Positions 3,789-55,736 of a DNA stretch of 59,129 nucleotides are shown one piece after another. Source of the DNA: an uncultured bacterium. GTDB taxonomy: Bacteria; Patescibacteriota; Minisyncoccia; Moranbacterales; UBA2206. The position numbers were made by a program, and so were the translations under genes. Location of the stretch: assembly GCA_903831805.1 (NCBI GenBank), contig CAIKZD010000016.1, positions 1 to 59,129 of the forward strand. Reading direction: 5' to 3'. The notes below the pieces were generated by a model. The model made no database searches. It was given only the letters and a program-made list of their open reading frames with translations, and was not told the origin of the DNA. The stretch's first letter is position 1; every line of letters starts with the position of its first letter.

Positions 3789-3835
3789 TGAATTACTAAG
3801 AACATTAAAAACTTTTCATACCACGGCAGAATAAT

Positions 3836-3890
3836 TTTCAATCGCAATTTCCCCCTATTTGCGATTGAAAATTATTCTGCTGTCCAAGTA
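3836..3890. repeat. Perfect 22-bp hairpin (inverted repeat)
   Basis: GCAGAATAATTTTCAATCGCAA (3836-3857) and its exact reverse complement (3869-3890), separated by an 11-nt loop TTTCCCCCTAT. Confidence 0.9.
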
Positions 3891-4369
3891 TTATTGCCAA
3901 CGTGCAATAGTCGCCTTCGATTTCTGACCGAAGGACCTCAAAATAAAAACAAAAATGGGATATTCAAAAAATTTGAGTAAACCCAAAAAACTTTTTTAAA
4001 CAAAAACAAAAAATAAAAAAGTAAGTTCTTTAAATTTAAAAGGCTAATATGCCAGAGGATGGTAGAAGAAACGACGCTTAAATAAAGTCAGAATAAGCAT
4101 CAAACACAAAAGTCGTACATAAAATACACTGGATCTATAATTGTTGAAATAGTATATCCGATAGAGAAAATAATCTTGAAACATTGTTTTTTCCATCGGA
4201 TATACATAACCGCCTCTCACCCGGGCTAGGCAATTTCCGACCACAGCGTTAGTATGACAAAACGCCGTGGGCGTTCCGCCTATAATTTTTCTTTATCGGG
4301 CGCTTGAACGCCCATGGTTTCCAACCTGAAATTTATTTTAGAATGGCCATGGAGGCTGTTTTTTGTTAC

Positions 4370-5406: not shown

Positions 5407-5823
5407 ATGTACGAATCAAGCTCAAAAAGCAAAAGATTTTATTTCTTCGTGATTGGGACATTGCTTATCTTCCTTGACCAGTTTATAAAATATAAAATCC
5501 GCACCATGGGCGGATTTTATATTTGCAATCATAATATTGCATTTAGTTTAAGTGTTTATCCTTGGTTGTTTTGGATAATTTGGCTTATTATGATCGGTCT
5601 CGTGGTTATTTTTTTGTATAAAAAAGCTCATAACCGATATGCTTTTTGGTTGACACTTATTTTAGCCGGCGCCGTAGCCAATGTTTTGGACAGGATTTTT
5701 TTAGGCTGTGTTATAGATTTCATCGATTTAAAATTCTGGCCGGTCTTCAATTTAGCCGATATTTATATTACAATAGGAGTATCAGTCATTATGGTAAACA
5801 TGTTACGTAGCAATAAGTTATAA
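5407..5823 (+). CDS. lspA: Lipoprotein signal peptidase (signal peptidase II)
   Basis: 138 aa with four hydrophobic spans, the LDQFIK N-terminal motif and the catalytic-region motif FNLADIYITIG. Confidence 0.85.
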   Translation: MYESSSKSKRFYFFVIGTLLIFLDQFIKYKIRTMGGFYICNHNIAFSLSVYPWLFWIIWLIMIGLVVIFLYKKAHNRYAFWLTLILAGAVANVLDRIFLGCVIDFIDLKFWPVFNLADIYITIGVSVIMVNMLRSNKL

Positions 5824-5914
5824 TAATTTTCAATTTTCAAACCTTCAATTTTCAACCAATGATAAATTTTCAATTTTAAAATTATTTAATTGAAAATTTA
5901 TTGAAAATTGATTA
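5824..5914. repeat. AT-rich palindromic intergenic element (TTCAATTTTCAA family)
   Basis: TTCAATTTTCAACCAATGATAAAT (5844-5867) is followed by inverted AATTGAAAATTTAT / TTGAAAATTG segments. A related copy lies at 7466..7581. Confidence 0.7.
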
Positions 5915-7465
5915 TTGATTATTGAAAATTCTACCCCTTTGTCTTCTAAAGTTTTTTCTGCTACTACCTTTGGCCTAAAAAGCGAGTTGGTTGAAGTGGA
6001 AGCGGATACGGTTAGCGCCGGACTGCATCATTTTAATATTGTGGGGTTGCCTGATATGGCGGTTAAGGAATCCAAGGACCGCGTGGGCGCGGCGATTCGT
6101 AATTCCGGCTTCAAACCGCCGCATCGGGCTGGGCGTGTGACGGTGAATTTGGCACCAGCGGATCTCAAAAAAGAAGGTCCGATTTATGACTTACCAATTG
6201 CCTTGGGCTTTCTTTTGACTACTAAGCAAATATCCTTTAATTTCGAAGGTAAGATGTTTTTAGGCGAGTTGTCATTGGACGGCCAAGTAAGAAGTGTGAA
6301 AGGGGTGTTACCGATGGCCATCTTGGCTAAGGAAAAAGGTATTGGCGAACTATATGTGCCAGCAGACAATGTGGCGGAAGCGGCCGTTATTGAGCATATT
6401 CAAGTTTTTCCGGTTAAGACGCTGGCGGAAGTCATTGGACACTTGAGTGGAGACAATCAGATTCCAGCGGCGGAAAAAATCGATTTGGAAAAACTTTTTG
6501 CTTATGATGATTATGTGACCGATATGGCGTATGTCAAAGGACAAGAGCACGCTAAGCGCGCCCTGGAAATTGCAGCCGCTGGCGGACACAATGTTATTTT
6601 GAATGGCCCGCCTGGCAGTGGGAAAACGTTGCTCGCCAAAGCCATGACTTCTATTTTGCCTCGCCTCACGATTGCGGAAGCCTTGGAAGTGACTAAGATT
6701 TTTTCCATTGCCGGACAATTGCCCAGAAATGCTTCGCTCATCACTAAGCGCCAGTTTCGTTCGCCTCATCACAGTGCGTCAGCGGTCTCTTTGGTCGGGG
6801 GCGGAACCTATCCACGTCCCGGGGAAATCAGTTTGTCGCATCGGGGGGTTCTTTTTCTGGATGAATTTCCGGAATTTTCCCGAGCCGTCCTGGAAAATCT
6901 GCGCCAACCCTTGGAAGATGGCGTTATTACCATCTCACGCGCACAAGGCACCTTGGAGTTTCCGGCACGCTTTACCCTGGTAGCTGCGATGAATCCATGT
7001 CCTTGCGGCAATGCCACTGATCCGGAAAGGACTTGCACTTGCTCTCCGGCCGGGATCATAAAATATCAACAAAGAATTTCCGGGCCGATTTTGGACCGCA
7101 TCGATCTGCATGTGGAAGTGCCGCGCATCAAATTTGAAAAACTTTCCCAAGAATCCGCTTCCGAAAAATCGGCGGATATTCGTGAGCGCGTTGAAAAAGC
7201 ACGACACATTCAACGTGAAAGATTTTCCAATACGACCACCATTTCCAACAGCGAAATGGAAAGTGAACAAATCAAAAGTTTTTGTGCGCTTGACCAGGGC
7301 TCTACTGATTTGATGCGCAGCGCTGTTTCCAATTTCCATCTTTCCGGCCGCGCCTATTTCCGCATCATTAAGGTAGCGCGCACCATCGCTGATTTGGCGG
7401 GAGCTACCAATATTACGCCAGCGCATATCGCCGAAGCGGTGCAATATCGTTTTAAAGCGGAGTAA
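5915..7465 (+). CDS. comM: YifB/ComM-family Mg-chelatase-like ATPase
   Basis: 516 aa with a Lon-protease-like N-domain, Walker A GPPGSGKT, Walker B LFLDEF and the conserved C-terminal region. The ORF-track start is TTG, so the exact start is uncertain. Confidence 0.9.
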   Translation: MIIENSTPLSSKVFSATTFGLKSELVEVEADTVSAGLHHFNIVGLPDMAVKESKDRVGAAIRNSGFKPPHRAGRVTVNLAPADLKKEGPIYDLPIALGFLLTTKQISFNFEGKMFLGELSLDGQVRSVKGVLPMAILAKEKGIGELYVPADNVAEAAVIEHIQVFPVKTLAEVIGHLSGDNQIPAAEKIDLEKLFAYDDYVTDMAYVKGQEHAKRALEIAAAGGHNVILNGPPGSGKTLLAKAMTSILPRLTIAEALEVTKIFSIAGQLPRNASLITKRQFRSPHHSASAVSLVGGGTYPRPGEISLSHRGVLFLDEFPEFSRAVLENLRQPLEDGVITISRAQGTLEFPARFTLVAAMNPCPCGNATDPERTCTCSPAGIIKYQQRISGPILDRIDLHVEVPRIKFEKLSQESASEKSADIRERVEKARHIQRERFSNTTTISNSEMESEQIKSFCALDQGSTDLMRSAVSNFHLSGRAYFRIIKVARTIADLAGATNITPAHIAEAVQYRFKAE

Positions 7466-8547: not shown

Positions 8548-8680
8548 AGGACTTACGCGCTTGCCTCAAATTCTTATAAATCGTCTACCCTGAATCGGTT
8601 AGTCGACTGCCGGTCTACGCAGGCCTTATCTTGCTAAATAAGATGACCGTAAATAATTTTTCGGCAAGCGCGTAAGCCCT
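8548..8680. repeat. 133-nt long-hairpin (ERIC/MITE-like) element
   Basis: 18-nt arms AGGACTTACGCGCTTGCC (8548-8565) and GGCAAGCGCGTAAGCCCT (8663-8680) are 17/18 complementary. The central sequence TAGTCGACTGCCGG resembles the apices of the elements at 37790 and 39655. Confidence 0.75.
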
Positions 8681-8716: not shown

Positions 8717-9529
8717 ATGCAACCAAAAAAATCCTTAGGTCAAAATTTTTTGCGAGATGAAAAAGTTTTGGACGAGATAATTGCAGCCGCTGACCTAACT
8801 GTGGACGATTTAGTTTTGGAGATTGGACCAGGGGAAGGAGTTTTAACAAAAGAACTATTGAAACTTGCAGGGAAAATAATTGCGATAGAAAAAGATGATA
8901 ATTTAGTTTTGCGATTGGAGGCACTCTTTCGCGGGAACGAAAAACTTGAAATTATTCATGCTGATATTATGGAAATAAATTTACCGGAGATCCTTCGACT
9001 ACGTCCGGGTACGGACTTCGCTCAGGATGACGAATTTAAATATAAACTTATTGCGAACATTCCGTATTATATCACTTCGCCAATTATTAGGCTTTTTCTG
9101 GAAACGAAATATCCTCCGCGGACAATGATTCTGATGGTACAAAAAGAAGTGGCGGAACGGATTTGTGCGAGCGCGGGGCAAATGAGCATTCTGGCGGTCA
9201 GCGTGCAATACTATGCTACGGCCAAAATATTATTCGAGGTAGATAGAAAATCTTTTTGGCCGGTGCCGGAAGTGGATAGTGCCATCATTAGAATAGTGCC
9301 TACGCGAAAAAATATTTTCAAAGAAGAAAGGAAAAACTTTTTCCGCCTAGTTAAGGCGGGCTTTAGCGCGAAAAGGAAAACCTTGTCCAATAATCTAGCT
9401 ACTAGTTTGCAATTAGACAAAAAAATAGTAGAAGAAAAACTTGCGCAAGCCGGTTTGCTTCCATCAGTAAGAGCGCAAGAATTGAGTGTGGAGAACTGGG
9501 AAAAACTGAGAAAGCTTTTTGAGCTTTAG
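8717..9529 (+). CDS. rsmA: 16S rRNA (adenine1518/1519-N6)-dimethyltransferase
   Basis: 270 aa with the KKSLGQNFL start motif, the SAM motif LEIGPGEG and NIPYYITSPI. Confidence 0.93.
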   Translation: MQPKKSLGQNFLRDEKVLDEIIAAADLTVDDLVLEIGPGEGVLTKELLKLAGKIIAIEKDDNLVLRLEALFRGNEKLEIIHADIMEINLPEILRLRPGTDFAQDDEFKYKLIANIPYYITSPIIRLFLETKYPPRTMILMVQKEVAERICASAGQMSILAVSVQYYATAKILFEVDRKSFWPVPEVDSAIIRIVPTRKNIFKEERKNFFRLVKAGFSAKRKTLSNNLATSLQLDKKIVEEKLAQAGLLPSVRAQELSVENWEKLRKLFEL

Positions 9530-9534
9530 GATTT

Positions 9535-9572
9535 TAGGACTTACACGTTTGTCTCAAATTCTTATAGCTCGT
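9535..9572. repeat. Solo left-arm copy of the 8547 element
   Basis: TAGGACTTACACGTTTGTCTCAAATTCTTATAGCTCGT is 33/38 identical to 8547-8584. No matching right arm follows. Confidence 0.7.
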
Positions 9573-34149: not shown

Positions 34150-34920
34150 TTACTTGATTTGTGTTCCCGGGCGGAGGGCTGGATTCTTTATCAATTTCTT
34201 CTGTTGCATTATAGCAAAAACAGTCGAAACGAGCCAATAGAGTGCCAGTCCAGTTGGAAACTTTACCCCGATAAAAAGGGTTAAGAGTGGTCCGAGGTAC
34301 ATCATTTGGGTGGACATCGTGCTGGCCAAATCAGGTGTAGCGGAGGCCGTTTTCGGCTTAGCCGGCATAATCATCTTGATTTGAAAATACTGAGCCACTG
34401 CCGCTGCTACAATTAGCATGATTTGAAAAAAAGATCCCACGCTCAGATGCCCGAAATTGATGGTTTTGGAAAGATCCACTAGCCCGAGGAAATATTGATT
34501 TATCTGCCCGGGATTGGGGATGAATAAATACAATTCTTTTGGATCTACGAGCAATCCCATTTTAGAAATATTGAATAAAACCCTGTAAATGGCGATTAAA
34601 AAGACTAATTGAAAAATGGTGGGCAAGCAGCCGGAAAAGGGGTTGGTTTTATTAGTCTTATAAAATTCCATTAAAGCTTTGCTTTGTTTTTCCTTATCTT
34701 TTTTGTATTTTTCCTGAATTTCCTTGATTTTTGGCTGCAATTCTTGCATTTTCTTTTGCGATTCGATTTGTTTTTTGGACAAAGGCAAAAGAGCTAGCTT
34801 GATAAGGATGGTAACGATGATAATGGCGAGGCCAAAATCATGAAAAGACAAGGTGTTATAGACAAAAATCAAAAGATTATAAAGCGGGCGGTATACAATC
34901 TCATTAAACAAAAACCCCAT
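34150..34920 (-). CDS. yidC: Membrane protein insertase YidC (short form)
   Basis: 256 aa with a YidC/Oxa1 core (NPFSGCLPTIFQLVFLIAIY, PTGLALYWLVS). It follows rnpA. Confidence 0.9.
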   Translation of the reverse strand: MGFLFNEIVYRPLYNLLIFVYNTLSFHDFGLAIIIVTILIKLALLPLSKKQIESQKKMQELQPKIKEIQEKYKKDKEKQSKALMEFYKTNKTNPFSGCLPTIFQLVFLIAIYRVLFNISKMGLLVDPKELYLFIPNPGQINQYFLGLVDLSKTINFGHLSVGSFFQIMLIVAAAVAQYFQIKMIMPAKPKTASATPDLASTMSTQMMYLGPLLTLFIGVKFPTGLALYWLVSTVFAIMQQKKLIKNPALRPGTQIK

Positions 34921-34934
34921 GTTTTTTATTTTAT

Positions 34935-35279
34935 TTATTTAATCAGCAAGTTTCCTCGTTGCAAGGCATTTTTCAAGCTTTGCTCAAGTTTTTGATAGGT
35001 TGGCTCAGTCGCTTCCTTTTTCAGCATAATCACGATGTCGCATCCGCTTTTCATCTCCTCCAGGTGTTTTCTGACGATGTCACGCAACCATCTTTTGGCT
35101 TGATTGCGCGCCACGGCCGTAGAAGAGAATTTAATGCCGATAGAAAAGCCGATTCTGATCGTGTTAAGTTTATTACTCGCCACCTTTAAAGAAACATTTT
35201 CAGAAGAAAAAAATCGGCCATTTTTGTACACTAAGTCGAAATCTTTGCCTAAAGTAAGCCTATTTTCGCGAGAAAGCAT
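34935..35279 (-). CDS. rnpA: Ribonuclease P protein component
   Basis: 114 aa, basic, with the RNR-type motif region VARNQAKRWLRD. It lies immediately downstream of rpmH. Confidence 0.9.
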   Translation of the reverse strand: MLSRENRLTLGKDFDLVYKNGRFFSSENVSLKVASNKLNTIRIGFSIGIKFSSTAVARNQAKRWLRDIVRKHLEEMKSGCDIVIMLKKEATEPTYQKLEQSLKNALQRGNLLIK

Positions 35280-35283
35280 CTTT

Positions 35284-35421
35284 TTAAACGGTGGTTAGTT
35301 TTTTCCTGCCCTTCTGGCGTCTGCGCTTGATGACATTTTGTCCGGAGCTGGTTTCTTGGCGCTTGAGAAAGCCGTGGCTGTTCCTTCTTTTGGTAGTTTT
35401 CGGTTTGTAGGTAACGCTCAT
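35284..35421 (-). CDS. rpmH: 50S ribosomal protein L34
   Basis: Not in the ORF track (45 aa). My translation is [45 protein letters not shown], with ATG at 35421 and TAA at 35284-35286. Confidence 0.9.
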
Positions 35422-35457
35422 ATATTTCCTTATAAGTTAAAAGTTTAAGTACTTAGA

Positions 35458-35486
35458 AGTGTACCAGTTACAGATGCAAAAGTCAA
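35458..35486 (-). promoter_or_regulatory. Candidate promoter of rpmH-rnpA-yidC-khpB
   Basis: On the minus strand: TTGACT (35486-35481), 17-nt spacer, TACACT (35463-35458), ~35 nt upstream of the rpmH ATG. Confidence 0.45.
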
Positions 35487-35548
35487 TTAAGCTGGATGAT
35501 TAGACGCCATAATTTGATTTTACATCCTCGGCGTGGTAGTTTAAGAAT

Positions 35549-37063
35549 ATGGAAACAGAGGAAATCCCAAAATATATAATAGAAGTCATACAAAAACTGG
35601 AGGCAGCGGGCCAGGAGGCTTTTTTGGTGGGCGGCTGCGTGCGGGATATGCTACTCGGGAAAGTGCCCAAAGATTGGGATGTGGCGACGACGGCACACCC
35701 GGAAGAGGTTACGAAAATTTTTCCGGACGCCAAATATGAGAACGGCTTTGGGACGGTGATGCTACCAATCAAATATCTCCTGGGAGAAACAGCGGAGAAA
35801 AGCGAAGATAATCTGGGCGTGGTGGAAGTGACGACCTACCGTATCGAATCGAAATATAGCGATAAGCGGCATCCGGACAGTGTGAAGTTTGCTGAGACGC
35901 TGGAGGAAGATTTGAGCCGGCGGGATTTTACGGTGAATGCCATGGCAGCCCAACCCCTCCCCAGCCCTCCCCTGAATACAGGAGAGGGGGCTGAGTACGA
36001 GTTGATTGATTTGTTTGGCGGACAAAATGATTTGGAGAATAAAATTATTCGGGCAGTGGGGGAGGCGAGTGAAAGATTTGATGAGGATGCATTGCGTATG
36101 ATGCGGGCGATCCGTTTTGCGGTGCAACTTAATTTTACGATCGAGGAAAATACTTTTGCAGCTATCAAAAAGAATGCTGGTAATTTAAAATTTATTTCGC
36201 AGGAAAGGATCCATGATGAATTTGAGAAAATAATTTTATCGCCGTTGCCGGCGGCTGGGATGGAGATGCTGCATGAGGCTGGTTTATTGCAATATATAAT
36301 TCCGGAAATTGAAATCGGTTATGACGTGACCCAAAGTCATCATCACTATTATGGGCCGTATAATACAGTCTATAAGCATCTATTGGCCAGTCTTGAAAAA
36401 TGTCCGTCCGAGAAATTGGAAGTCAGATTGGCAGCGCTTCTGCATGACGTGGGAAAACCAAATGTAAAACGGGGACAAGGAGAAAATGCGACTTTCTATA
36501 ATCATGAATATGTGGGAGCCAGATTGGCCGAACAGATTTTAAAGAGACTGCGCTTCTCGACCAAAGTGATTGAAAAAGTAGTACTGCTTGTCAAAAATCA
36601 CATGTTCTATTATAACGTCGATGAAGTGGGCGAGGCGGGCGTGCGTCGCGTGGTGCGGAAAGTCGGCTTGGAAAACATCAATGATTTGATCGATGTGCGC
36701 ATTGCCGATCGTTTGGGGAGCGGCGTGCCGAAAGCGGTGCCATACAAGCTGCGCCATTTCAAATTCATGGTGGAGAAAGTTTCGCACGACGCGGTGTCGG
36801 TGAAACAACTGAAAGTCAATGGCCATGATCTGATGAGCGAACTGAAAATGACACCCGGGCCGAAAATCGGGACAATTCTGGATGTGCTTTTGGCGGAAGT
36901 GATTGAGGACGCAACGCTGAATGATAAAAATAAATTACTTATGCGCGCCAAGGAATTGGACAAAGAAGATGTGGCGGCTCTGCGGAGAACAGCGAAGGAT
37001 AAAATTAAAGAAGAACAAAAAGAAGAAGAAAAATTGATAAAAAATAAATATCATGTGGGATAA
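35549..37063 (+). CDS. cca: CCA-adding enzyme / poly(A) polymerase-family nucleotidyltransferase with HD domain
   Basis: 504 aa with the head motif LVGGCVRDMLLGKVPKDWDVATT, RDFTVNAMA, and an HD region LLHDVGKP. Confidence 0.85.
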   Translation: METEEIPKYIIEVIQKLEAAGQEAFLVGGCVRDMLLGKVPKDWDVATTAHPEEVTKIFPDAKYENGFGTVMLPIKYLLGETAEKSEDNLGVVEVTTYRIESKYSDKRHPDSVKFAETLEEDLSRRDFTVNAMAAQPLPSPPLNTGEGAEYELIDLFGGQNDLENKIIRAVGEASERFDEDALRMMRAIRFAVQLNFTIEENTFAAIKKNAGNLKFISQERIHDEFEKIILSPLPAAGMEMLHEAGLLQYIIPEIEIGYDVTQSHHHYYGPYNTVYKHLLASLEKCPSEKLEVRLAALLHDVGKPNVKRGQGENATFYNHEYVGARLAEQILKRLRFSTKVIEKVVLLVKNHMFYYNVDEVGEAGVRRVVRKVGLENINDLIDVRIADRLGSGVPKAVPYKLRHFKFMVEKVSHDAVSVKQLKVNGHDLMSELKMTPGPKIGTILDVLLAEVIEDATLNDKNKLLMRAKELDKEDVAALRRTAKDKIKEEQKEEEKLIKNKYHVG

Positions 37064-37149: not shown

Positions 37150-37782
37150 ATGGCTTCACAAATATCGCATATTATTTACGCGAAAAAATATTTCGATCAG
37201 TTGGAGGCTGGGCAGGTTGAAAGTGCGATTAGAATAGACAAGGAAGAATTTTTGCTGGGCTGTGTGTTCCCGGATATCCGGCGGATCGATCCAAAAATAA
37301 AAAGACGGGATACTCACCTATGTTTTTCCCCGCTGGATCTGAATTTTTCCGGGCTGTCATCTTTCCAAGCCGGCTGGAAATTCCATCTATATTGCGATAT
37401 GCGGCGGGAAGAAATTTTGAATAAATATAAATTTTACGAATTGCCTCACACCACGGATGTGTATAATCAGCCGGCGAAAGATTTGGAAGATGAATTGGTG
37501 TATGGCGAATATAATAATTGGGAAAAATTAGTCAATTATTTCAATAATCCTCCCGCGGTGGAAACCGGATTGGATTTTGATCCAGCTAGTTTTTTTCTGT
37601 GGTATGCCATGATTGCCAGATATATTGAAAAGAAACCGGATGACAAAAGTATGCGATCTTTTCTGGTGAAACAACCGGGGTTGCTGAAAGATTTAGATGG
37701 CATCATGGAGAGTGTCAGAGAATTGCGCAAGAATGAAAAAGCCAAGGGGATTTTAGGGAAGGTGTGGCAGGAGGTGGTGTGA
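37150..37782 (+). CDS. Hypothetical protein
   Basis: 210-aa ORF with ordinary composition. No motif I can assign with confidence. Confidence 0.55.
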   Translation: MASQISHIIYAKKYFDQLEAGQVESAIRIDKEEFLLGCVFPDIRRIDPKIKRRDTHLCFSPLDLNFSGLSSFQAGWKFHLYCDMRREEILNKYKFYELPHTTDVYNQPAKDLEDELVYGEYNNWEKLVNYFNNPPAVETGLDFDPASFFLWYAMIARYIEKKPDDKSMRSFLVKQPGLLKDLDGIMESVRELRKNEKAKGILGKVWQEVV

Positions 37783-37789
37783 ACGCGTG

Positions 37790-37929
37790 TTTTATAGTAA
37801 TATCGTTTTTTATTTAACTCGAACGTGCATTTTTTTGCTAAAATTTTCCTAAGTCGACGGCTGGTACGGAAAATTTTAGAAAAAATCCGCATTCTCAGAC
37901 AGGAAATAAAAAACAATATTACTATAAAA
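37790..37929. repeat. 140-nt double-stem structured element, copy A (upstream of fhs)
   Basis: Outer 22-nt arms at 37790-37811 / 37908-37929 are 21/22 complementary. The inner 12-bp stem is CTAAAATTTTCC (37838-37849) / GGAAAATTTTAG (37868-37879). Conserved unpaired blocks are TTAACTCGAACG, CGACGGCTG and TTCTCAGACAGGAA. Confidence 0.8.
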
Positions 37930-37979
37930 TACTTAGAGAGATAGAAAAGAGGAATGGAATATAATCTAATAATAATTTT

Positions 37980-39650
37980 ATGAAAAGCGATATTGAAATT
38001 GCACAGGCGGCGGAGATGAAAAATATTAAAGAGATTGCTAGTATTTCCGGAATAGATGAAAAAGAGTTGGAACTCTATGGAGATTATAAAGCCAAATTAA
38101 AGCCGGAGCTGTGGGAGCGGATTAAAAAGAACAAAGATGGGAAATTGATTTTGGTCACGGCCATTAATCCGACGCCGGCCGGCGAGGGTAAAACCACTAC
38201 GTCCATTGGTCTCGCAATGGCGATGCGGCGTTTGGGAAAAAAGGCTATGTTGGCAATTCGTGAACCGTCACTGGGGCCGTGTATGGGCATGAAAGGCGGC
38301 GCGGCGGGTGGCGGGTATGCGCAAGTGATGCCGATGGAGGATATCAATTTACATTTCACGGGCGACCTGCACGCCATCACCACAGCGAATAATTTGCTGG
38401 CAGCTATGATTGATAATCATATTTTTCATGGTAATACTCTCGGAATTGACCCGCAAAGGATTCTCTGGAAGCGCGCGCTGGACCTGAATGATCGAGCGCT
38501 CCGAGAAGTGGTGGTGGGCCTGGGCGGAAAAACGCAAGGGGTGCCGCGAGAAGATGGGTTTAATATTACCGTGGCTTCGGAGATTATGGCCATCCTATGT
38601 CTGGCGGAGAACATGACCGATATCAAAAGAAAGTTAGAAAAAATAATTGTGGCTTATAATTATACTAACCAACCGGTTTTCGCACGCGAACTGAAAGTGG
38701 TGGGGGCGTTGGCGACACTTTTGAAAGATGCAATCAAACCGAATTTGGTCCAGACGCTGGAACATACGCCTGTGCTCATTCATGGCGGGCCGTTTGCCAA
38801 TATTGCCCATGGGTGCAATAGTGTTCTCGCCACGCGCTATGGTCTGAAATTAGGCGATTATCTTATTACGGAAGCGGGGTTCGGGGCGGATCTGGGGGCG
38901 GAAAAATTTTTCAATATCAAATGTCGCGTGGCTAAACTGAAGCCGGCCGCGGTAGTGCTGGTCGCCACCGTACGAGCCTTGAAATATAATGGCGGAATGG
39001 ACAAAGAAGCCCTGCCTTTGCCGAGTACGGTTTTTTTGAAACGAGGCCTGCCGAATTTGGAAAAACATATTGAAAATTTGAAACGTTTTGGAGTGCCGGT
39101 GGTAGTGGCTATCAATGTTTTCCCGACTGATACGCACGCAGAATTGAAAATGCTGGAAGATGCCGTGAAAAATTTAGGTGCGGCCTATGCGGTGTCAAGA
39201 GTGTGGGAAAAAGGCGGGGCGGGCGGGGAAGAATTGGCTCGGGCAGTGTTGGAAACATTGGAAAAAAAGCGAACTAATTTTAAATTTACTTACAGCGAAA
39301 CGCAGCATATCAAAAATAAGATCGAAGCTATCGCGCAGCATATTTATGGGGCGGATAAAGTTTCGTTCAGTGTCAAAGCGCAAAAGCAAATGGAAAAATT
39401 GCGACAAGATAAGTTGGACAAGCTGCCGATCTGCATCGCCAAAACCCAATATTCCTTGTCGGATAATCCCAAATTGCTCGGTCGGCCGAAAGGTTTTACA
39501 CTGGCAATTTCAGAACTCCACATTTCCAATGGCGCGGGATTTATTGTGGCGATGGCCGGGGACATCATGACGATGCCGGGATTGCCGCGCGTTCCGGCGG
39601 CGGAAAAGATTGATGTGAACGAGGAGGGAAAAATTTCCGGCTTGTTTTGA
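37980..39650 (+). CDS. fhs: Formate--tetrahydrofolate ligase
   Basis: 556 aa with the P-loop [13 protein letters not shown] and end-to-end FTHFS-type sequence. Confidence 0.95.
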
Positions 39651-39654
39651 GTTA

Positions 39655-39800
39655 TATTGCCAGTGATTATTTTGAACAAATTAACTCGAAAGCTTATTTT
39701 CTAACCAAAATTATTTTGACGACCGACGGCTGAACAAAATAATTTTGGAGAAAATAAACTTTCTCAGACAGGAATTTTTTCAAAATAATCACTGGCAATA
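39655..39800. repeat. 146-nt double-stem structured element, copy B (between fhs and folD)
   Basis: Outer perfect 22-bp stem at 39655-39676 / 39779-39800. The inner perfect 13-bp stem is CCAAAATTATTTT (39705-39717) / AAAATAATTTTGG (39736-39748). It has the same conserved unpaired blocks as copy A. Confidence 0.8.
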
Positions 39801-39816
39801 AATTAATAATAAGTAT

Positions 39817-40662
39817 ATGGCAAAAATTTTGGATGGAAAAAAAATAGCAGAGGAAATTAAAGACGAACTGCGGCTGGAGATTTTGGCGTTGCAAAAAAAA
39901 GACGTTGTGCCCGGATTAGCGGTAGTTTTAGTGGGAGATGATGCGGCATCGAAAGTGTATGTGGGCGGCAAGGAAAAAGTTTGTCAGGAGCTAGGAATTT
40001 TTTCCGTGGTGCATAAATTGCCAGCGAACGTGAGCGAAAGCAATATTCTAAACTTAATTGAAGAGCTAAATGCGGATAAAAAAATTCATGGAATTTTAGT
40101 CCAGTTGCCGCTACCGGGAAATATCAATCCGCAAAAAATCATCGGCGCCATTTCTCCTAAAAAAGACGTAGATTGTTTCCATCCGGAAAATGTCGGGAAG
40201 ATGTTTTTGGGAGAGGTGATTTTTCTGCCGTGCACCCCGGATGGCATCATAGAAATTTTGCAAAGATATGGCATTGAAATTTCCGGCCAGAATGTGACTA
40301 TTGTCGGGCGAAGCAATATTGTGGGGAAACCTCTGTCCATGCTGCTACTCCAAAAAAACGCGACGGTCACAATAGCGCATTCAAAAACCAAAAATTTGTC
40401 AGCCGAAACATTGCGGGCGGATATTTTGGTTTCGGCGACGGGACGCGCTGGACTAATCACGGCGGATATGGTAAAACAAGGAGCAGTTGTCATTGACGTG
40501 GGAATGAATCGTGATGAGGCTGGAAAGTTGGTGGGCGACGTGGATTTTGCAGGAGTTTCTGCGGTGGCCGGGGCGATTACACCGGTGCCTGGTGGAGTGG
40601 GGCCGATGACCATTGCCATGCTTATGAAAAATACAGTGGCAGCCGCTAAAAATGCCGAATAA
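39817..40662 (+). CDS. folD: Bifunctional methylene-THF dehydrogenase / methenyl-THF cyclohydrolase
   Basis: 281 aa with GILVQLPLP, GRSNIVGKP and PVPGGVGPMT motifs. Confidence 0.95.
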   Translation: MAKILDGKKIAEEIKDELRLEILALQKKDVVPGLAVVLVGDDAASKVYVGGKEKVCQELGIFSVVHKLPANVSESNILNLIEELNADKKIHGILVQLPLPGNINPQKIIGAISPKKDVDCFHPENVGKMFLGEVIFLPCTPDGIIEILQRYGIEISGQNVTIVGRSNIVGKPLSMLLLQKNATVTIAHSKTKNLSAETLRADILVSATGRAGLITADMVKQGAVVIDVGMNRDEAGKLVGDVDFAGVSAVAGAITPVPGGVGPMTIAMLMKNTVAAAKNAE

Positions 40663-40974: not shown

Positions 40975-41058
<84 letters not shown>

Positions 41059-41083
41059 AGGATGAACGATAAAAATTAAATAT

Positions 41084-41170
41084 GCCTTGGTGGCGGAATT
41101 GGTATACGCGCATGCTTCAGGAGCATGTTCTCGCAAGGGATTGGGAGTTCGAGTCTCCCCCAAGGCACCA
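41084..41170 (+). tRNA. tRNA-Leu (anticodon CAG), CCA encoded
   Basis: Acceptor GCCTTGG/CCAAGGC, anticodon arm CATGC-TTCAGGA-GCATG, long variable arm, T-loop TTCGAGT, 3' ACCA at 41167-41170. Confidence 0.92.
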
Positions 41171-42123
41171 TGAAAGAAACAGTCATCTTCAAAAAAAATG
41201 CGAAACAACGAATTGATAAATTCCTGAAAGAGGAAATTTTTTTGAATATGGAGATGACGCGCGGGGAAATTATTCGGCAGATAAAAAACGGTAGTGTTTT
41301 GGTGAACAAGATGCCAGTAAAACCGAGCTATTTGCTGAAAAAAAACGATGAGGTTGAAATGGACATTACGGAAGGTGCTGTGGTACTTTCACCGAACAAA
41401 AATGTTAAATTTGGAATAATTTTTCAAGATGAAAATATGATTGTGGTGGATAAACCGGCCGGCCTGCAAGTCCATCCCAGCACGAAAAATGAAAGCAACA
41501 CTTTAGTGCATGGTTTGCTCTATAAATTTCCGGAAATCGGCAATGTTGGAGATGCTCCAGAGACGCGCCCCGGCATTGTGCATCGCTTGGACCGCGGGAC
41601 GAGTGGGGTGTTGATCGTAGCGAGAAATCAAAAAACATTTCTGTCGCTCAAACAAAAGTTTAAGAATAGGGAAATGAAAAAAAAGTATTGGGCGGTGACG
41701 TACGGCGCACCGGAAAAGAGCGGAATCATTGATGCGCCGCTGGCCCGGGCAGCCAATTATAAAAAACAAATCGTAGCTTCGGGTAAAACCAAGACCAAAA
41801 TTCGCGCCGCGGTGACAGAATTTATCACTTTAGAGAAATCTGAAAAATATGCTCTCTTGGAAGTTTCTCCTCGGACCGGCCGGACGCATCAGATCCGGGT
41901 GCACCTCACTTCCATCGGTCATCCGATTGTGGGAGATGAAAAATACGCACAAAAGAAATTTTCGAATGAAGAAACTGCGCCTAGACTTTTCTTGCACGCC
42001 TTAACTTTGGAGTTTGAACATGATGGCCAAAAATATAAATTCGCTTCTCCAGCGCCCGCTGATTTTCAGGATTTTTTGGAAAAAAATGGACTTTGGCCCA
42101 AGGGGTTGACGAAAAGGGGATAA
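41170..42123 (+). CDS. rluD: RluA-family 23S rRNA pseudouridine synthase (RluD-like, with S4 domain)
   Basis: ORF 41125..42123 trimmed to the ATG at 41170 (MKETVIF), because the upstream part lies inside tRNA-Leu. It has the catalytic motif HRLDRGTSG and THQIRVH. Confidence 0.88.
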   Translation: MKETVIFKKNAKQRIDKFLKEEIFLNMEMTRGEIIRQIKNGSVLVNKMPVKPSYLLKKNDEVEMDITEGAVVLSPNKNVKFGIIFQDENMIVVDKPAGLQVHPSTKNESNTLVHGLLYKFPEIGNVGDAPETRPGIVHRLDRGTSGVLIVARNQKTFLSLKQKFKNREMKKKYWAVTYGAPEKSGIIDAPLARAANYKKQIVASGKTKTKIRAAVTEFITLEKSEKYALLEVSPRTGRTHQIRVHLTSIGHPIVGDEKYAQKKFSNEETAPRLFLHALTLEFEHDGQKYKFASPAPADFQDFLEKNGLWPKGLTKRG

Positions 42124-42753: not shown

Positions 42754-42836
42754 GCCTTCGTGGTGGAATTGGTATACACACATGCTTGAGGTGCATGGGT
42801 CGCAAGGCCATGCGGGTTCGAGTCCCGCCGAAGGCA
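42754..42836 (+). tRNA. tRNA-Leu (anticodon GAG)
   Basis: Acceptor GCCTTCG/CGAAGGC, anticodon arm CATGC-TTGAGGT-GCATG, long variable arm, T-arm GCGGG-TTCGAGT-CCCGC. Confidence 0.92.
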
Positions 42837-42845
42837 CCTAGAGGG

Positions 42846-42919
42846 GGATCCTTAGCTCAGTTGGCTAGAGCGCCTCGTTTACACCGAGGATGTCATAGGT
42901 TCGAGTCCTATAGGGTCCA
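42846..42919 (+). tRNA. tRNA-Val (anticodon TAC)
   Basis: Acceptor GGATCCT/AGGGTCC, D-arm GCTC-AGTTGGCTA-GAGC, anticodon arm CCTCG-TTTACAC-CGAGG, T-arm ATAGG-TTCGAGT-CCTAT. Confidence 0.92.
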
Positions 42920-42924
42920 CATCG

Positions 42925-42999
<75 letters not shown>

Positions 43000-43076
43000 A
43001 AAAAGTAGAAAATAGTTAGAGGTCTCCTTCGCGACTAGCGGGCTTCGCCCACCGAAAGTCGCTTTGGCGACTAAAA

Positions 43077-43148
43077 GCGGGTATCGTATAGTGGCTATTA
43101 CACTAGGTTGCCAATCTAGTGACACGGGTTCGATTCCCGTTACCCGCT
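43077..43148 (+). tRNA. tRNA-Gly (anticodon GCC)
   Basis: Acceptor GCGGGTA/TACCCGC, anticodon arm CTAGG-TTGCCAA-TCTAG, T-arm ACGGG-TTCGATT-CCCGT. Confidence 0.9.
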
Positions 43149-45936: not shown

Positions 45937-46007
45937 GGTCGTGTGGCCGAGTGGTTAGGCAAGGGTCTGCAAAACCCTGTACCCCGGTTCAAATCCGGGC
46001 GCGACCT
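45937..46007 (+). tRNA. tRNA-Cys (anticodon GCA)
   Basis: Acceptor GGTCGTG/CGCGACC, anticodon arm AGGGT-CTGCAAA-ACCCT, T-arm CCGGT? region CCCGG-TTCAAAT-CCGGG. Confidence 0.88.
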
Positions 46008-46020
46008 CAAATGAAATTAT

Positions 46021-46103
46021 GGGAGAGTGGTGAAATGGTATACACTCGACACTTAAAATGTCGCGGAGCTTGCTCCATGAGGGTTCGAGTCCCTCCTCTC
46101 CCA
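46021..46103 (+). tRNA. tRNA-Leu (anticodon TAA)
   Basis: Acceptor GGGAGAG/CTCTCCC, anticodon arm CGACA-CTTAAAA-TGTCG, long variable arm, T-arm GAGGG-TTCGAGT-CCCTC. Confidence 0.92.
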
Positions 46104-49979: not shown

Positions 49980-50007
49980 AAACTTAATTTAAAAATTTCA
50001 AAATCCA

Positions 50008-50079
50008 AATTTCAAATGACAAATAAAATCTAAAATCAAAATATCAAAAAATTATTTATTAATTTTGTCATTTGAAATT
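50008..50079. repeat. 16-bp perfect inverted repeat between infB and rbfA
   Basis: AATTTCAAATGACAAA (50008-50023) / TTTGTCATTTGAAATT (50064-50079). The loop contains the 17-mer AAAATCTAAAATCAAAA (50025-50041), also present at 52498-52514. Confidence 0.8.
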
Positions 50080-50112
50080 GATTTGAAATTTGTAATTTGA
50101 TATTTGAAATTT

Positions 50113-51891
50113 CTACAAGGTTCTTTTTTTGATTTCTTCGCGATAACACAAGAGGGTGTCGTCGACTTTGATTTTAGTTTCGCCAAGGAAAGTGACGCCG
50201 CATTCTTTTTGTTTAGTGACTTCATCGACGTCCACTTTGTTTTCTTGCAGATTCTTAAGGGTGCCTTTGCCGATGACATTCTCGCCACGCATCACTTCCA
50301 GGAGGGTGCCGTTGACCATTTTGCCGGTAAGAATTTTTCCACCGACAATCATATCGCCGCGACCGGTTTTGAAAATAGCCAGCACTTGCATCTTGCCAAA
50401 ATCCGTGCGTTCCACAATTGGCGGCAGCATGGCGACCAATTTGCTCTTGATATCATCCACCAATTCATAAATGACGCGAAAGTTTTTGATTTCCACTTTG
50501 GCGTTTTCGGCCATGCGTTTGGCCACGGTGGTGGCTTCGACATTGAAACCATAAACAATCGCATGGGTGTTGCCAGCCAAACGGACATCGGATTCGGTGA
50601 TGTTGCTGACACCCATTTCGATGTAATCAATAGCCACTTCGTCGGATTTGATCTCGCCTAAAATTTGCAAAATAGCTTCCAGTGATCCTTGCACATCAGA
50701 CTTAAGGATGATGTTCAAGCGTTTCACTTTTTCATCCACAATGGTTTTCATCACAGTGCGAGTATTTTGGGCTTCTTGGTTGCCGGTTTGGTTGAATTTT
50801 CCGATAAGCGCACGATTTCTGGCGTTGGCCTTGTCAGTGGCGACTTGTAGGATATCATTAGAATTGGGGGCGCTGTTGAGGCCGATCAAACTAATAGGAG
50901 ACGATGGGCCGGCTTCGGTAACGCGTTGACCTTTGAAATTTTCAATGCGGCGGACTCGGCCATAGGTCGTGCCAGCCACTATATCCTGACCTTCTTTAAG
51001 CACCCCGGTTTTCACTAGGATAGTGGCCACCGGACCTTTTTGCGGATCAAGATGGGATTCCAAAACGACGCCCAAGGGATCGCGGGCATAATCGGCTTGA
51101 AAGTCTTCCACCTCAGCCACTAATAGAATATTATCGAGCAAATCGTCGATGCCAATGTTCTTCTTAGCGCTGATTTTGGATGACAACACTTGGCCGCCCC
51201 ATTCTTCCAAGACAATGCCATGGTCGGCCAATTCTTGTTTCACTCGTTGGATGTTGGCTTCCGGTTTGTCGATCTTGTTGATAGCCACCACGGTGGGGAT
51301 TTTTTTGGCTAACAGATATTCGATTACTTCCTTGGTTTGCGGACGCACTCCGTCATCTGCGGCGACGACGAGGACGGCAATGTCAGCCAAGCTTACGCCA
51401 CGTTCGCGCATAGCACTGAAAGCTTCATGTCCCGGGGTGTCCACGAAAGTGATGATTTGACCTTTCTTTTTAACTTGATAAGCCGTGATATGCTGAGTGA
51501 TGCCACCTGATTCGCCAGCTGCGACACTGGTTTTTCTGATGGTGTCGAGTAAGGTGGTCTTGCCATGATCAACATGCCCCAAGATAGTGACAATGGGCGG
51601 ACGACCTTTCAGATTTTCCCCCGCAGCCTTTTCTTTTCGCAGTAAGTCATTCAATTTTTCCAAAGTCATCGTGTCGCTGGCCTCCACCACTTCTTCGGAA
51701 ACTTCAAAACCTAAATCTTGTGCAATAATAGAAGCTGTTTCAAAATCTATCTTTTCGTTGATAGTGGCCAGAATGCCATTTTTCATGAGTTCAGTGATAA
51801 TGACGCTGATAGACAAATTCAAAACTTCACCGAATTTTTTAACGGTGATAATTGGAGGCAAAGCTATTTTTTTCGGAGTTGTATCGGACAT
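50113..51891 (-). CDS. infB: Translation initiation factor IF-2
   Basis: GTPase motifs GHVDHGKTT, DTPGH and NKID, plus IF-2 C-terminal domains. Start set to the ATG at 51891 (MSDTTPKK) rather than the TTG at 51912, which overlaps the upstream gene. Confidence 0.93.
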   Translation of the reverse strand: MSDTTPKKIALPPIITVKKFGEVLNLSISVIITELMKNGILATINEKIDFETASIIAQDLGFEVSEEVVEASDTMTLEKLNDLLRKEKAAGENLKGRPPIVTILGHVDHGKTTLLDTIRKTSVAAGESGGITQHITAYQVKKKGQIITFVDTPGHEAFSAMRERGVSLADIAVLVVAADDGVRPQTKEVIEYLLAKKIPTVVAINKIDKPEANIQRVKQELADHGIVLEEWGGQVLSSKISAKKNIGIDDLLDNILLVAEVEDFQADYARDPLGVVLESHLDPQKGPVATILVKTGVLKEGQDIVAGTTYGRVRRIENFKGQRVTEAGPSSPISLIGLNSAPNSNDILQVATDKANARNRALIGKFNQTGNQEAQNTRTVMKTIVDEKVKRLNIILKSDVQGSLEAILQILGEIKSDEVAIDYIEMGVSNITESDVRLAGNTHAIVYGFNVEATTVAKRMAENAKVEIKNFRVIYELVDDIKSKLVAMLPPIVERTDFGKMQVLAIFKTGRGDMIVGGKILTGKMVNGTLLEVMRGENVIGKGTLKNLQENKVDVDEVTKQKECGVTFLGETKIKVDDTLLCYREEIKKRTL

Positions 51892-52520: not shown

Positions 52521-52651
52521 TGTCATTGCGAGGGAGTGTAGCGGACGAAGCAATCTCGCAATTTGTATCACCAAGCTAAACATTAAGACTGGTGAATTAA
52601 AGCATGAGATTGCCGCGGTCGTCTCGAGTACGAAACTCCCTCGCAATGACA
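52521..52651. repeat. 131-nt long-hairpin element (TGTCATTGCGAGGGAG arms)
   Basis: Perfect 16-bp arms at 52521-52536 / 52636-52651, with an inner pair GCAATCTC (52550-52557) / GAGATTGC (52606-52613). Confidence 0.8.
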
Positions 52652-55646: not shown

Positions 55647-55736
55647 TGGCGGAAGAGGAGGGATTTGAACCCCCGGTACCGTTTCCGGTACACCGCATTT
55701 CGAGTGCGGCCCATTCGACCACTCTGGCACTCTTCC
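55647..55736 (-). tRNA. tRNA-Ser (anticodon CGA), CCA encoded
   Basis: The reverse complement folds as a class II tRNA: acceptor GGAAGAG/CTCTTCC, anticodon arm CCGCA-CTCGAAA-TGCGG, long variable arm, T-loop TTCAAAT, 3' GCCA. Confidence 0.9.

Follow-up and report, generated by a model that had tools for sequence, protein, structure and literature searches.

A dispersed palindromic repeat with conserved unpaired blocks, located behind stop codons in Parcubacteria/Moranbacteria-like bacteria

The contig CAIKZD010000016.1, a stretch of 59,129 nucleotides from an uncultured bacterium (hereafter the window), carries two long palindromes, here called copies A and B, which bracket fhs, the gene for formate-tetrahydrofolate ligase, with folD following the second. 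What kind of element they are, whether they belong to these one-carbon genes, and whether they act as DNA or as RNA are the questions raised by this locus and by an earlier note on it, which had described two copies of one double-stem element with exchanged stems and conserved loops. We find that A and B are members of two old subfamilies of a dispersed palindromic repeat of ~145 nt in ultra-small, Parcubacteria/Moranbacteria-like bacteria of the candidate phyla radiation (CPR), that the folded hairpin is kept by selection, and that the copies are far better conserved than neutral sites.

Anatomy of the hairpin

The two copies and their parts are listed here, with scores from the covariance model R1 described below.

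37787..37932, forward strand: copy A (A-type subfamily), complete palindromic element of ~146 nt, R1 115 bits
37787..37815, forward strand: outer 5′ arm of A, 29 nt, partner 37904–37932 (27 Watson-Crick pairs, 1 G·T, 1 A·C)
37816..37820, forward strand: 5′ side of the internal loop of A, AACTC; the next GAA (37821–37823) pairs with TTC (37892–37894)
37855..37861, forward strand: conserved apical-loop motif of A, CGACGGC
37895..37903, forward strand: 3′ side of the internal loop of A, TCAGACAGG
37904..37932, forward strand: outer 3′ arm of A
39655..39800, forward strand: copy B (B-type subfamily), complete element of ~146 nt, R1 121 bits
39655..39682, forward strand: outer 5′ arm of B, 28 nt, partner 39773–39800 (96% complementary)
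39683..39687, forward strand: 5′ side of the internal loop of B, AACTC
39724..39730, forward strand: apical-loop motif of B, CGACGGC
39764..39772, forward strand: 3′ side of the internal loop of B, TCAGACAGG
39773..39800, forward strand: outer 3′ arm of B

From outside to inside, the element consists of an outer stem, an asymmetric internal loop (5′ AACUC versus 3′ UCAGACAGG in RNA letters), a middle helix of 13–15 bp whose first pairs join GAA with UUC, a small bulge, an inner helix of 12–14 bp, and an apical loop of 16–18 nt containing CGACGGC. The location of both copies and their common architecture are as first described: exact blocks occur in both in the same order and spacing (TTAACTCGAA, CGACGGCTG and TTCTCAGACAGGAA, with CGACGGCTG set within TCGACGGCTG in A and CCGACGGCTG in B), and the folding of both is much stronger than that of dinucleotide shuffles (z = −8.1 for A and −12.8 for B). 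Several details of that description needed revision. The outer stem, given there as 22 bp, measures 28–29 bp, and the asymmetric internal loop, of which AACTC and TCAGACAGG are indeed unpaired, had been drawn so as to include the overlooked middle helix; part of the blocks reported as unpaired is in fact paired, because GAA pairs with TTC. The statement that the stems were fully swapped applies to the outer arms, which are unrelated between A and B (27–28% identity) and are each nearly perfectly self-complementary, but not to the middle and inner helices, which have invariant A/T tracts in common, with 68% identity between the cores of the two copies.

A family of dispersed repeats in CPR bacteria

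A first three-block pattern was scanned over the GTDB species representatives, and a slightly looser pattern over metagenomes. The metagenome scan gave 72 loci, 18 of which were distinct AT-rich true copies and the remainder GC-rich chance matches, while the first pattern gave a single chance match in the GTDB species representatives, inside a Christensenella coding sequence; the family is missing from that collection or is not matched by that three-block pattern. Alignment A3, which comprises the cores with 14 nt on each side, has a consensus fold of 34 pairs and was used for the covariance model R1. This model found copies that the pattern had missed, namely a second copy in locus L045 (with a CGGCGGC apex), copies in L084, and two in L086. 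Together with the orthologous loci this brought the total to 22 distinct copies (76–122 bits), so that the covariance-model search suggested in the earlier note indeed returned additional copies and, as shown below, support for covariation. All known copies lie on CPR-type contigs, and the host of the window is itself a CPR bacterium; the Fhs proteins closest to that of the window come from Parcubacteria, Moranbacteria and Pacebacteria metagenome-assembled genomes (MAGs).

In the metagenome set, ACTCGA, CGACGGC and CTCARACAGG are invariant in part because the scan itself required these blocks. Positions outside the search pattern are also conserved, including AA before CTCG, TT before CTCA, A after CAGG, and the A/T tracts, and copies found by the covariance model or by synteny do show block changes: the copy at site A of L086 (L086A) carries TTTTCAAATAGG, and its counterpart at site B (L086B) has lost the CGACGGC apex. 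A mini-variant at 14940–15090 of L087, nested within a longer imperfect palindrome, consists of AACTCG, a 7-bp GC hairpin, CTCAAACAG and 10-bp arms. It reaches 31.6 bits in an R1 search and suggests that the internal-loop motif may be the core signature of a wider superfamily.

Within the window the family is limited to A and B. The 14-mer block with <3 mismatches occurs only in these two copies, and in an unfiltered R1 search of the window the next matches after A and B were their own reverse strands (36–37 bits), all others having E > 1. A hairpin at 8548..8680, which the earlier note had considered related on account of its apex, gave E > 10 in the unfiltered R1 search, and only a weak three-block resemblance remains.

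No relationship to described elements was found. Two scans of viral contigs gave 0 matches in one and 23 chance matches in the other, none of which matched the covariance model, and BLAST of copy B against phage and plasmid records gave nothing. With Rfam 15 at the gathering threshold only tRNAs pass in the window. A permissive Rfam search over 37700–39900 gave plant miRNA-precursor models at 17.5–39.1 bits, compared with gathering scores of 80–245 bits. In addition, a bacterial sRNA model matched the element and a snoRNA model the interior of fhs, both below threshold. All of these matches are noise of the kind that any long AT-rich hairpin produces. The Rfam searches thus place the element in no family, including the ZTP and THF riboswitches, ribozymes and HEARO, and literature searches for a description of such a repeat in CPR bacteria found none. 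The element is a previously undescribed bacterial intergenic palindromic repeat, which departs from known ones by its variable arms, invariant asymmetric loops, placement at stop codons, and conservation between CPR genomes that have diverged to the level of genera.

Selection on the fold and conservation between genomes

Compensatory double changes were present at 22 of the 34 consensus pairs. Across the 22 distinct copies, 93.6% of the cells were paired versus 75.7% in column shuffles, with none of 500 shuffles reaching the observed value, and sliding the partners by 1–3 columns reduced the paired cells to 43–63%. The covariation score was 0.477 observed versus 0.156. The folded structure is hence under selection, as the earlier note had argued.

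Compensated substitutions are also seen between orthologues: GAA/TTC has become GAG/CTC in the site A copy of L005 (L005A), and the arms of L005A (GTAAAATTTA/TAAATTTTAC) differ from those of L086A (TTAACTTTTA/TAAAAGTTAA) with both retaining 27/27 Watson-Crick pairs. Arm length is held near-constant, although no relationship exists between the arms of one subfamily and those of another. Leaving aside the L044, L052 and L045/L065 groups, it is 25–31 bp in 12 of the 13 copies, and 27–29 bp in nine; L052 is armless, L044 has loose extended pairing, and the arms of the L045-type copies and of L065 are nested and longer, at 38–58 nt.

Copies at the recJ locus are 96.6–98.6% identical in three genomes with recJ genes that are 78–88% identical at the nucleotide level, and in two of the three pairs compared the downstream flanks at this locus are about 50% identical. 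At the fhs locus, A is 77–87% and B 71–89% identical between genomes, while the third codon positions of fhs in the same genomes are 46–58% and the adjacent spacer 52–76% identical. A and B are kept in genomes with 81–90% Fhs identity, and the recJ-locus copy in genomes with about 80% RecJ identity.

Position and orientation relative to genes

The genes around the two copies in the window were as follows, the identification of fhs and folD agreeing with that of the earlier note.

37150..37782, forward strand: gene of 210 aa upstream of A (weak Zn_dep_PLPC match, under the Pfam cut-off)
37980..39650, forward strand: fhs, between A and B
39817..40662, forward strand: folD, 3′ of B

Both copies start 4 nt behind the upstream stop codon, which is that of the 210-aa gene for A and that of fhs for B, and they end ~48 nt before fhs (A) and 16 nt before folD (B). 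Of the 13 copies checked, 12 have a 5′ end that falls anywhere from 6 nt inside to 8 nt beyond the end of the upstream stop codon; the exception is L044, with its core about 55 nt downstream of that point. The element arm of L017 contains the two final recJ codons, GAT TAA, while in L087, with a RecJ that is 94% identical, the element is missing and the recJ C-terminus is different. Insertion inside open reading frames (ORFs) beyond the last two codons was not seen.

Genes beside the other copies include recJ/HAD, fpg/DUF3048, ABC transporter/proS, PMT_2 and GT2 glycosyltransferases, ftsX, ydjC and a YgjP-like gene. A possible enrichment next to a particular gene class, raised in the earlier note, was therefore not found, as neighbours are unrelated and represent no single pathway. 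Two copies also bracket one gene in L045, in this case a PMT_2 glycosyltransferase, and such bracketing is a by-product of an element that sits after stop codons in gene-dense DNA.

At loci where both neighbouring genes are on the same strand, 9 of the 10 copies are co-oriented with the genes (one-sided binomial probability under 50:50 about 0.011, by our own arithmetic). The exception, L062, is intact and antisense both to a genuine GT2 gene and to an upstream ORF of 349 aa without Pfam match. Since the genes here are mostly co-oriented, the bias is equally compatible with transcription and with the replication strand.

A switch in gene direction was noted at 34900–35600 of the window, where rnpA, yidC and a KH/R3H (jag-like) gene point leftward, and the gene for the CCA-adding enzyme and all later genes point rightward. 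GC skew rises from about −0.06 to +0.25 across 32–38 kb, and the region may hold a replication-origin-proximal switch, in which case A and B are located 2–4 kb to the right of it in leading-strand orientation.

Dispersal and turnover

Four copies from one sample (L045a, L045b, L062 and L072) are 92–96% identical over ~180 nt including the arms, in flanks that are only 17–44% identical. Turnover is also evident from the orthologous fhs loci in relatives, listed here with the identity of their Fhs to that of the window.

L005, Fhs 90%: site A present; site B present
L086, Fhs 81%: site A present; site B present
L007, Fhs 88%: site A with a B-like core in arms homologous to the A-site arms; site B empty
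L084, Fhs 85%: site A with a B-like copy in new arms, together with what is left of the old right arm; site B empty
L085, Fhs 83%: site A with a truncated A copy interrupted by another palindrome; site B with an unrelated perfect hairpin
L009, Fhs 85%: site A with a short remnant hairpin; site B empty
L083, Fhs 90%: site A empty, with a 35-nt spacer; site B with a simple hairpin, the loop of which retains AAACTCGAACGCGCATTTTTT

The B-like copy of L084 sits directly behind the upstream stop codon, and the hairpin at site B of L083 is an internally deleted remnant. The perfect hairpin which fills the fhs-folD spacer of L085 (3171–3256), and hence the position of copy B in the window, is built of TTACGAA/TTTCGTA units, and similar perfect long hairpins or repeats of these units are found in intergenic DNA at 15270–15320 of L087.

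The earlier note had played down mobility in arguing that the element is not a classic miniature inverted-repeat transposable element (MITE), but the family is dispersed, with four closely related copies in unrelated flanks and with presence, absence and remnants at orthologous sites. The distinction from a classic MITE itself stands, as the terminal arms are not conserved family-wide and there is no excess of target-site duplications (TSDs), with the best flanking direct repeat averaging 2.5 nt compared with 2.6 nt at random positions.

Some models for how copies arise were considered and set aside. The recJ locus does not provide a clean pair of filled and empty sites, and the insertion boundaries there are undefined, because L087 also has another downstream gene and another recJ C-terminus. 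An early hint that the arms are inverted copies of flanking host sequence came from L009, with a loop resembling the right arm of L007, and from the empty site B of L007, which resembles the left arm of B. This idea was dropped, though not strictly excluded, once more orthologues showed that the arms are old and homologous between genomes; what is seen in L009 and L084 is more plausibly left over from deletions. A further model, in which the element inserts into the loop of a terminator hairpin already in place, is unsupported at the fhs sites, and is possible for the composite copies nested in another palindrome (the L045 and L065 shells).

A DNA or an RNA element?

In RNA helices under selection, G·U pairs are as a rule much better tolerated than A·C. 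The outer arms taken together have 623 Watson-Crick, 8 G·T and 17 A·C pairs, and the core cells about 26 G·U and about 24 A·C, as tallied from the alignment. The absence of a G·U excess argues mildly against a classical structured RNA, and the symmetry would be expected where both DNA strands are equivalent for pairing, such as in a single-stranded DNA hairpin, in a cruciform or with arm-to-arm correction; we lean towards the DNA level on this point, on small counts from related copies. One strand must nevertheless be read, because the conserved loops are asymmetric.

We consider the best reading of the family, with a probability of roughly one half, to be that of REP/MITE-like (REP, repetitive extragenic palindromic) non-autonomous mobile hairpins, in which the unpaired blocks form a strand-specific protein recognition site. 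The element would be non-autonomous DNA, mobile now or formerly, that comes to lie immediately after a gene's stop codon, as a rule pointing in the direction of that gene. Selection would maintain the outer stem of ~28 bp, the loop with 5′ AACUC and 3′ UCARACAGG, two more helices and the apical YCGACGGC, and the non-palindromic unpaired blocks, which distinguish the strands, would most likely serve as recognition site for a trans-acting protein on the folded single strand. The closest analogy would be with REPs and their hairpin-forming doublets (REPINs), which are handled by REP-associated tyrosine transposases (RAYTs, of the Y1/HUH type), or with the ends of IS200/IS605, where the enzyme reads a DNA hairpin together with flanking unpaired bases. 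Recognition via the unpaired blocks would leave the stems free for compensated drift, and co-transcription would give the upstream cistron a highly stable RNA hairpin at its 3′ end, which could be the reason for the orientation bias and the long retention. The protein partner and action at the DNA rather than the RNA level are what we infer here, beyond the observed family membership, dispersal, covariation, conservation, orientation and position.

Several observations weigh against this reading. None of the copies is linked to a transposase or recombinase gene, and the window contains neither, nor a Y1 gene. A RAYT-like Y1 transposase gene does occur in another genome, on the related Moranbacteria contig L090 (13444–13992; Pfam Y1_Tnp 37.8 bits, cut-off 23; HVH motif), but its best NCBIfam match, REP_Tyr_transpos at 69 bits, is below the 80-bit cut-off, it is tied to a different, GTAG-type palindrome, and no strong copy of the element was found on the 21.7 kb of this contig that were searched (best covariance-model match 15.8 bits, E 0.45). 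Defining features of REPs are missing, as the element has no GTAG and its conserved blocks are not related to one another by inversion, and the known copy number is low, with 2 in 59 kb. A clean comparison of filled and empty sites was not found, leaving the insertion boundaries and the mechanism undefined. Finally, the orientation bias and stop-codon proximity fit a role at the RNA level equally well, and the very high conservation at the recJ locus suggests a benefit to the host rather than a tolerated parasite.

The last two points lead to the main rival, which we consider possible but clearly less probable: a host-beneficial cis-acting RNA element at the 3′ ends of cistrons, serving as a processing site (for instance for RNase III in the ~28-bp stem), as a stabiliser, or as a terminator without U-tract, with loops that bind a CPR-specific RNA-binding protein and copies that are spread by occasional duplication and kept by selection. 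Co-orientation at tandem-gene loci with copies abutting the upstream stop codon, strong orthologous retention with conservation above neutral sites, and strong covariation all agree with such an element, and an outer stem near 28 bp in most copies (27–29 bp in 9/22) would suit an enzyme that measures double strands. What speaks against it is that the stems are almost purely Watson-Crick, without excess of G·U over A·C, which is unusual for a selected RNA, that no U-tract follows 3′ of the hairpin, that the antisense copy in L062 is intact (92–94% identical to its siblings), that close relatives lose copies while synteny stays, and that the element matches no Rfam family.

A more tentative proposal borrows from both and treats the repeat as a long-lived, vertically inherited CPR hairpin, in which the loops AACUC/UCARACAGG and CGACGGC would be a new recognition module for a CPR protein, either of a new HUH or recombinase system that reads hairpins and is distinct from REP-RAYT, or of a host-needed RNA 3′-end processing or insulation function. 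The latter would explain 97–99% conservation beside a gene that is 78–88% identical.

It is unlikely that the family consists of ordinary MITEs moved by a DDE transposase, with the ~28-bp arms as terminal inverted repeats that differ by subfamily. The L045/L062/L072 subfamily does repeat the whole unit of ~180 nt including the arms at 92–96% identity, and a T-run/A-run segment beside the core is common to the arms of different loci. However, TSDs do not exceed chance, the arms are unrelated between subfamilies with the conserved part being the asymmetric internal blocks, conservation across genomes is much above that expected of a decaying MITE, and a parent insertion sequence was not seen in the window or in the other loci covered, which are genome fragments.

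Far less probable still, and largely refuted, is a folded single-strand recombination site like the attC of integrons, with fhs and other genes as cassettes. The variable sequence in a conserved structure, the unpaired bases that give strand identity, the location directly after an ORF in fixed orientation, and the single gene bracketed by two copies in the window and in L045 all recall attC. By inspection, however, the arm ends (GTGTTTTATA...TATAAAATAC in A and TATTGCCAGT...ACTGGCAATA in B) lack the R″/R′ core sites (RYYYAAC ... GTTRRRY), the bracketed genes are housekeeping genes, the order of the PLPC-like gene, fhs, folD and a 97-aa gene is unchanged with or without elements, and no integrase is annotated within ±10 kb.

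A riboswitch or regulator specific to one-carbon/folate genes, which the location of both window copies immediately 5′ of fhs and folD might suggest, is refuted by the copy distribution, since 14 other loci have unrelated neighbour genes and close relatives retain fhs-folD synteny without one or both copies, and it is further disfavoured by the lack of a match to ZTP, THF or any other Rfam family and by a perfect 28-bp outer stem that is not riboswitch-like.

Three narrower readings were also rejected. An outward promoter in B (TTCTCA, a 17-nt spacer and an AATAAT-like hexamer) was discounted, as the −10-like hexamer is not conserved in other copies; a twister-type loop-loop pseudoknot is unsupported, as inspection shows that a UCG/CGA pairing of 3 bp is all that can always form; and a K-turn in the internal loop was dismissed because the required G·A pairs are not conserved, the R position being mostly A.

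Other palindromes in the window and in related genomes

The hairpin at 8548–8680 and a site at 9536–9570 share a left end of ~35 nt, TAGGACTTAC(G/A)CG(C/T)TTG(C/T)CTCAAATTCTTATA. Each starts a few nt past a stop codon, and together they bracket a ksgA/rsmA-type rRNA dimethylase gene (8717–9529). The composite copies in L045, L065 and L072 have this AGGAsTTACrCrYTT shell as their outermost stem, and this looks like a second palindromic family, able to nest an A/B-type core. A further repeat family in these genomes is represented by a hairpin at 52521–52651 of the window, in which perfect arms of 17 nt (TGTCATTGCGAGGGAGT ... ACTCCCTCGCAATGACA) enclose an interior of the CGAAGCAATC type, and by the same kind of repeat at 5911–5995 of L087, located downstream of recJ where L017 has an A/B-type element.

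The RAYT-like gene of L090 is wedged between RND-MFP and ABC genes of an operon that is uninterrupted in L087. The ORF holds two GTAG-type palindromes in inverted orientation, GTAGGGAACGCATATATGCGTTCC and GGAACGCGTATACGCGTTCCCTAC, a pair that looks like a REPIN-like insertion within the coding sequence.

Other long AT-rich intergenic inverted repeats of the window lie at 49990–50115, 5822–5920, 3823–3883 and 4152–4205, and hairpins between genes seem to be a general trait of this genome. The window also contains nine tRNA genes in small clusters (40975–41167, 42754–43148, 45937–46103 and 55650–55736). A mechanically called, rluD-like ORF (41125–42123) overlaps the tRNA gene at 41084–41167 and hence probably starts further downstream than called; for this gene, the calls on contigs of the same strain differ in length (332 aa in L002 and 317 aa in L003).

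Significance

Genomes of CPR bacteria (Patescibacteria) are tiny and tightly packed, and a comparable repeat family was not found for them in the literature searched. Unusual features of the family described here are survival between genomes that have diverged to the level of genera, near-perfect stems that differ by subfamily, invariant unpaired blocks and placement at stop codons. If a protein partner exists, the repeat would offer a handle on a new hairpin-directed mobilisation system or on the definition of mRNA 3′ ends in CPR bacteria. In practice, R1 and the block pattern can flag such elements in MAG annotation, where long palindromes are potential sources of assembly and gene-calling artefacts, for example through stop codons that lie within the element arms.

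Comparison with known repeat systems

Classic MITEs have terminal inverted repeats, but in our family such repeats are not conserved family-wide, arms being shared only within the L045 subfamily, and a TSD of fixed length was not found. With the attC sites of integrons the element has in common the conservation of structure over sequence, unpaired bases that set the active strand, location after an ORF in fixed orientation, and size (attC sites reach ~140 nt), but it is without R and L boxes, cassette behaviour and integrase, and the genes it brackets are syntenic housekeeping genes.

The ERIC/IRU and Correia (NEMIS) elements are likewise imperfect palindromes of 100–150 nt in transcribed intergenic regions. 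They are co-transcribed, and their long RNA hairpins can be cut by RNase III or can alter mRNA stability depending on orientation. These elements have conserved terminal inverted repeats and a TA duplication, whereas the element described here has variable termini, no duplication that we could see, and conserved unpaired internal blocks. The Rickettsia palindromic elements are also palindromic repeats of ~100–150 nt in a reduced genome and can overlap coding-sequence ends, as here with the recJ stop codon of L017; there is no sequence relationship, and here insertion into ORFs was not seen past the last two codons.

The ends of IS200/IS605 and of their derivatives without genes, the palindrome-associated transposable elements (PATEs), resemble our element in combining a hairpin with short conserved single-stranded motifs, in having asymmetric, strand-specific ends, and in requiring neither inverted terminal repeats nor a TSD. 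They differ in that the left and the right end each have a subterminal hairpin of their own, and in that the left flank has a fixed tetra- or pentanucleotide as target, while the element is a single nested hairpin with left flanks that share no motif.

REP/REPIN-RAYT systems, finally, consist of short intergenic palindromic repeats that are non-autonomous and lack a TSD, as does the element. REPs and REPINs are read as single-stranded hairpins with unpaired bases by a single-copy domesticated transposase, the gene of which typically has the repeats on its sides, and REP elements are also known to affect mRNA 3′ ends. The element differs from them by the absence of GTAG at its ends, by blocks (AACTCGAA and TTCTCARACAGGAA) that are not reverse complements and that make up an asymmetric internal loop and an apical loop rather than two inverted REP units, and by arms that vary by locus, the lack of a linked RAYT and the low observed copy density. 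A further likeness is the RAYT-like gene on the related Moranbacteria contig L090. Published work describes long vertical persistence of REPs and REPINs at orthologous sites (for example PMC3116915, PMC8049555), and the element likewise persists vertically at orthologous sites.

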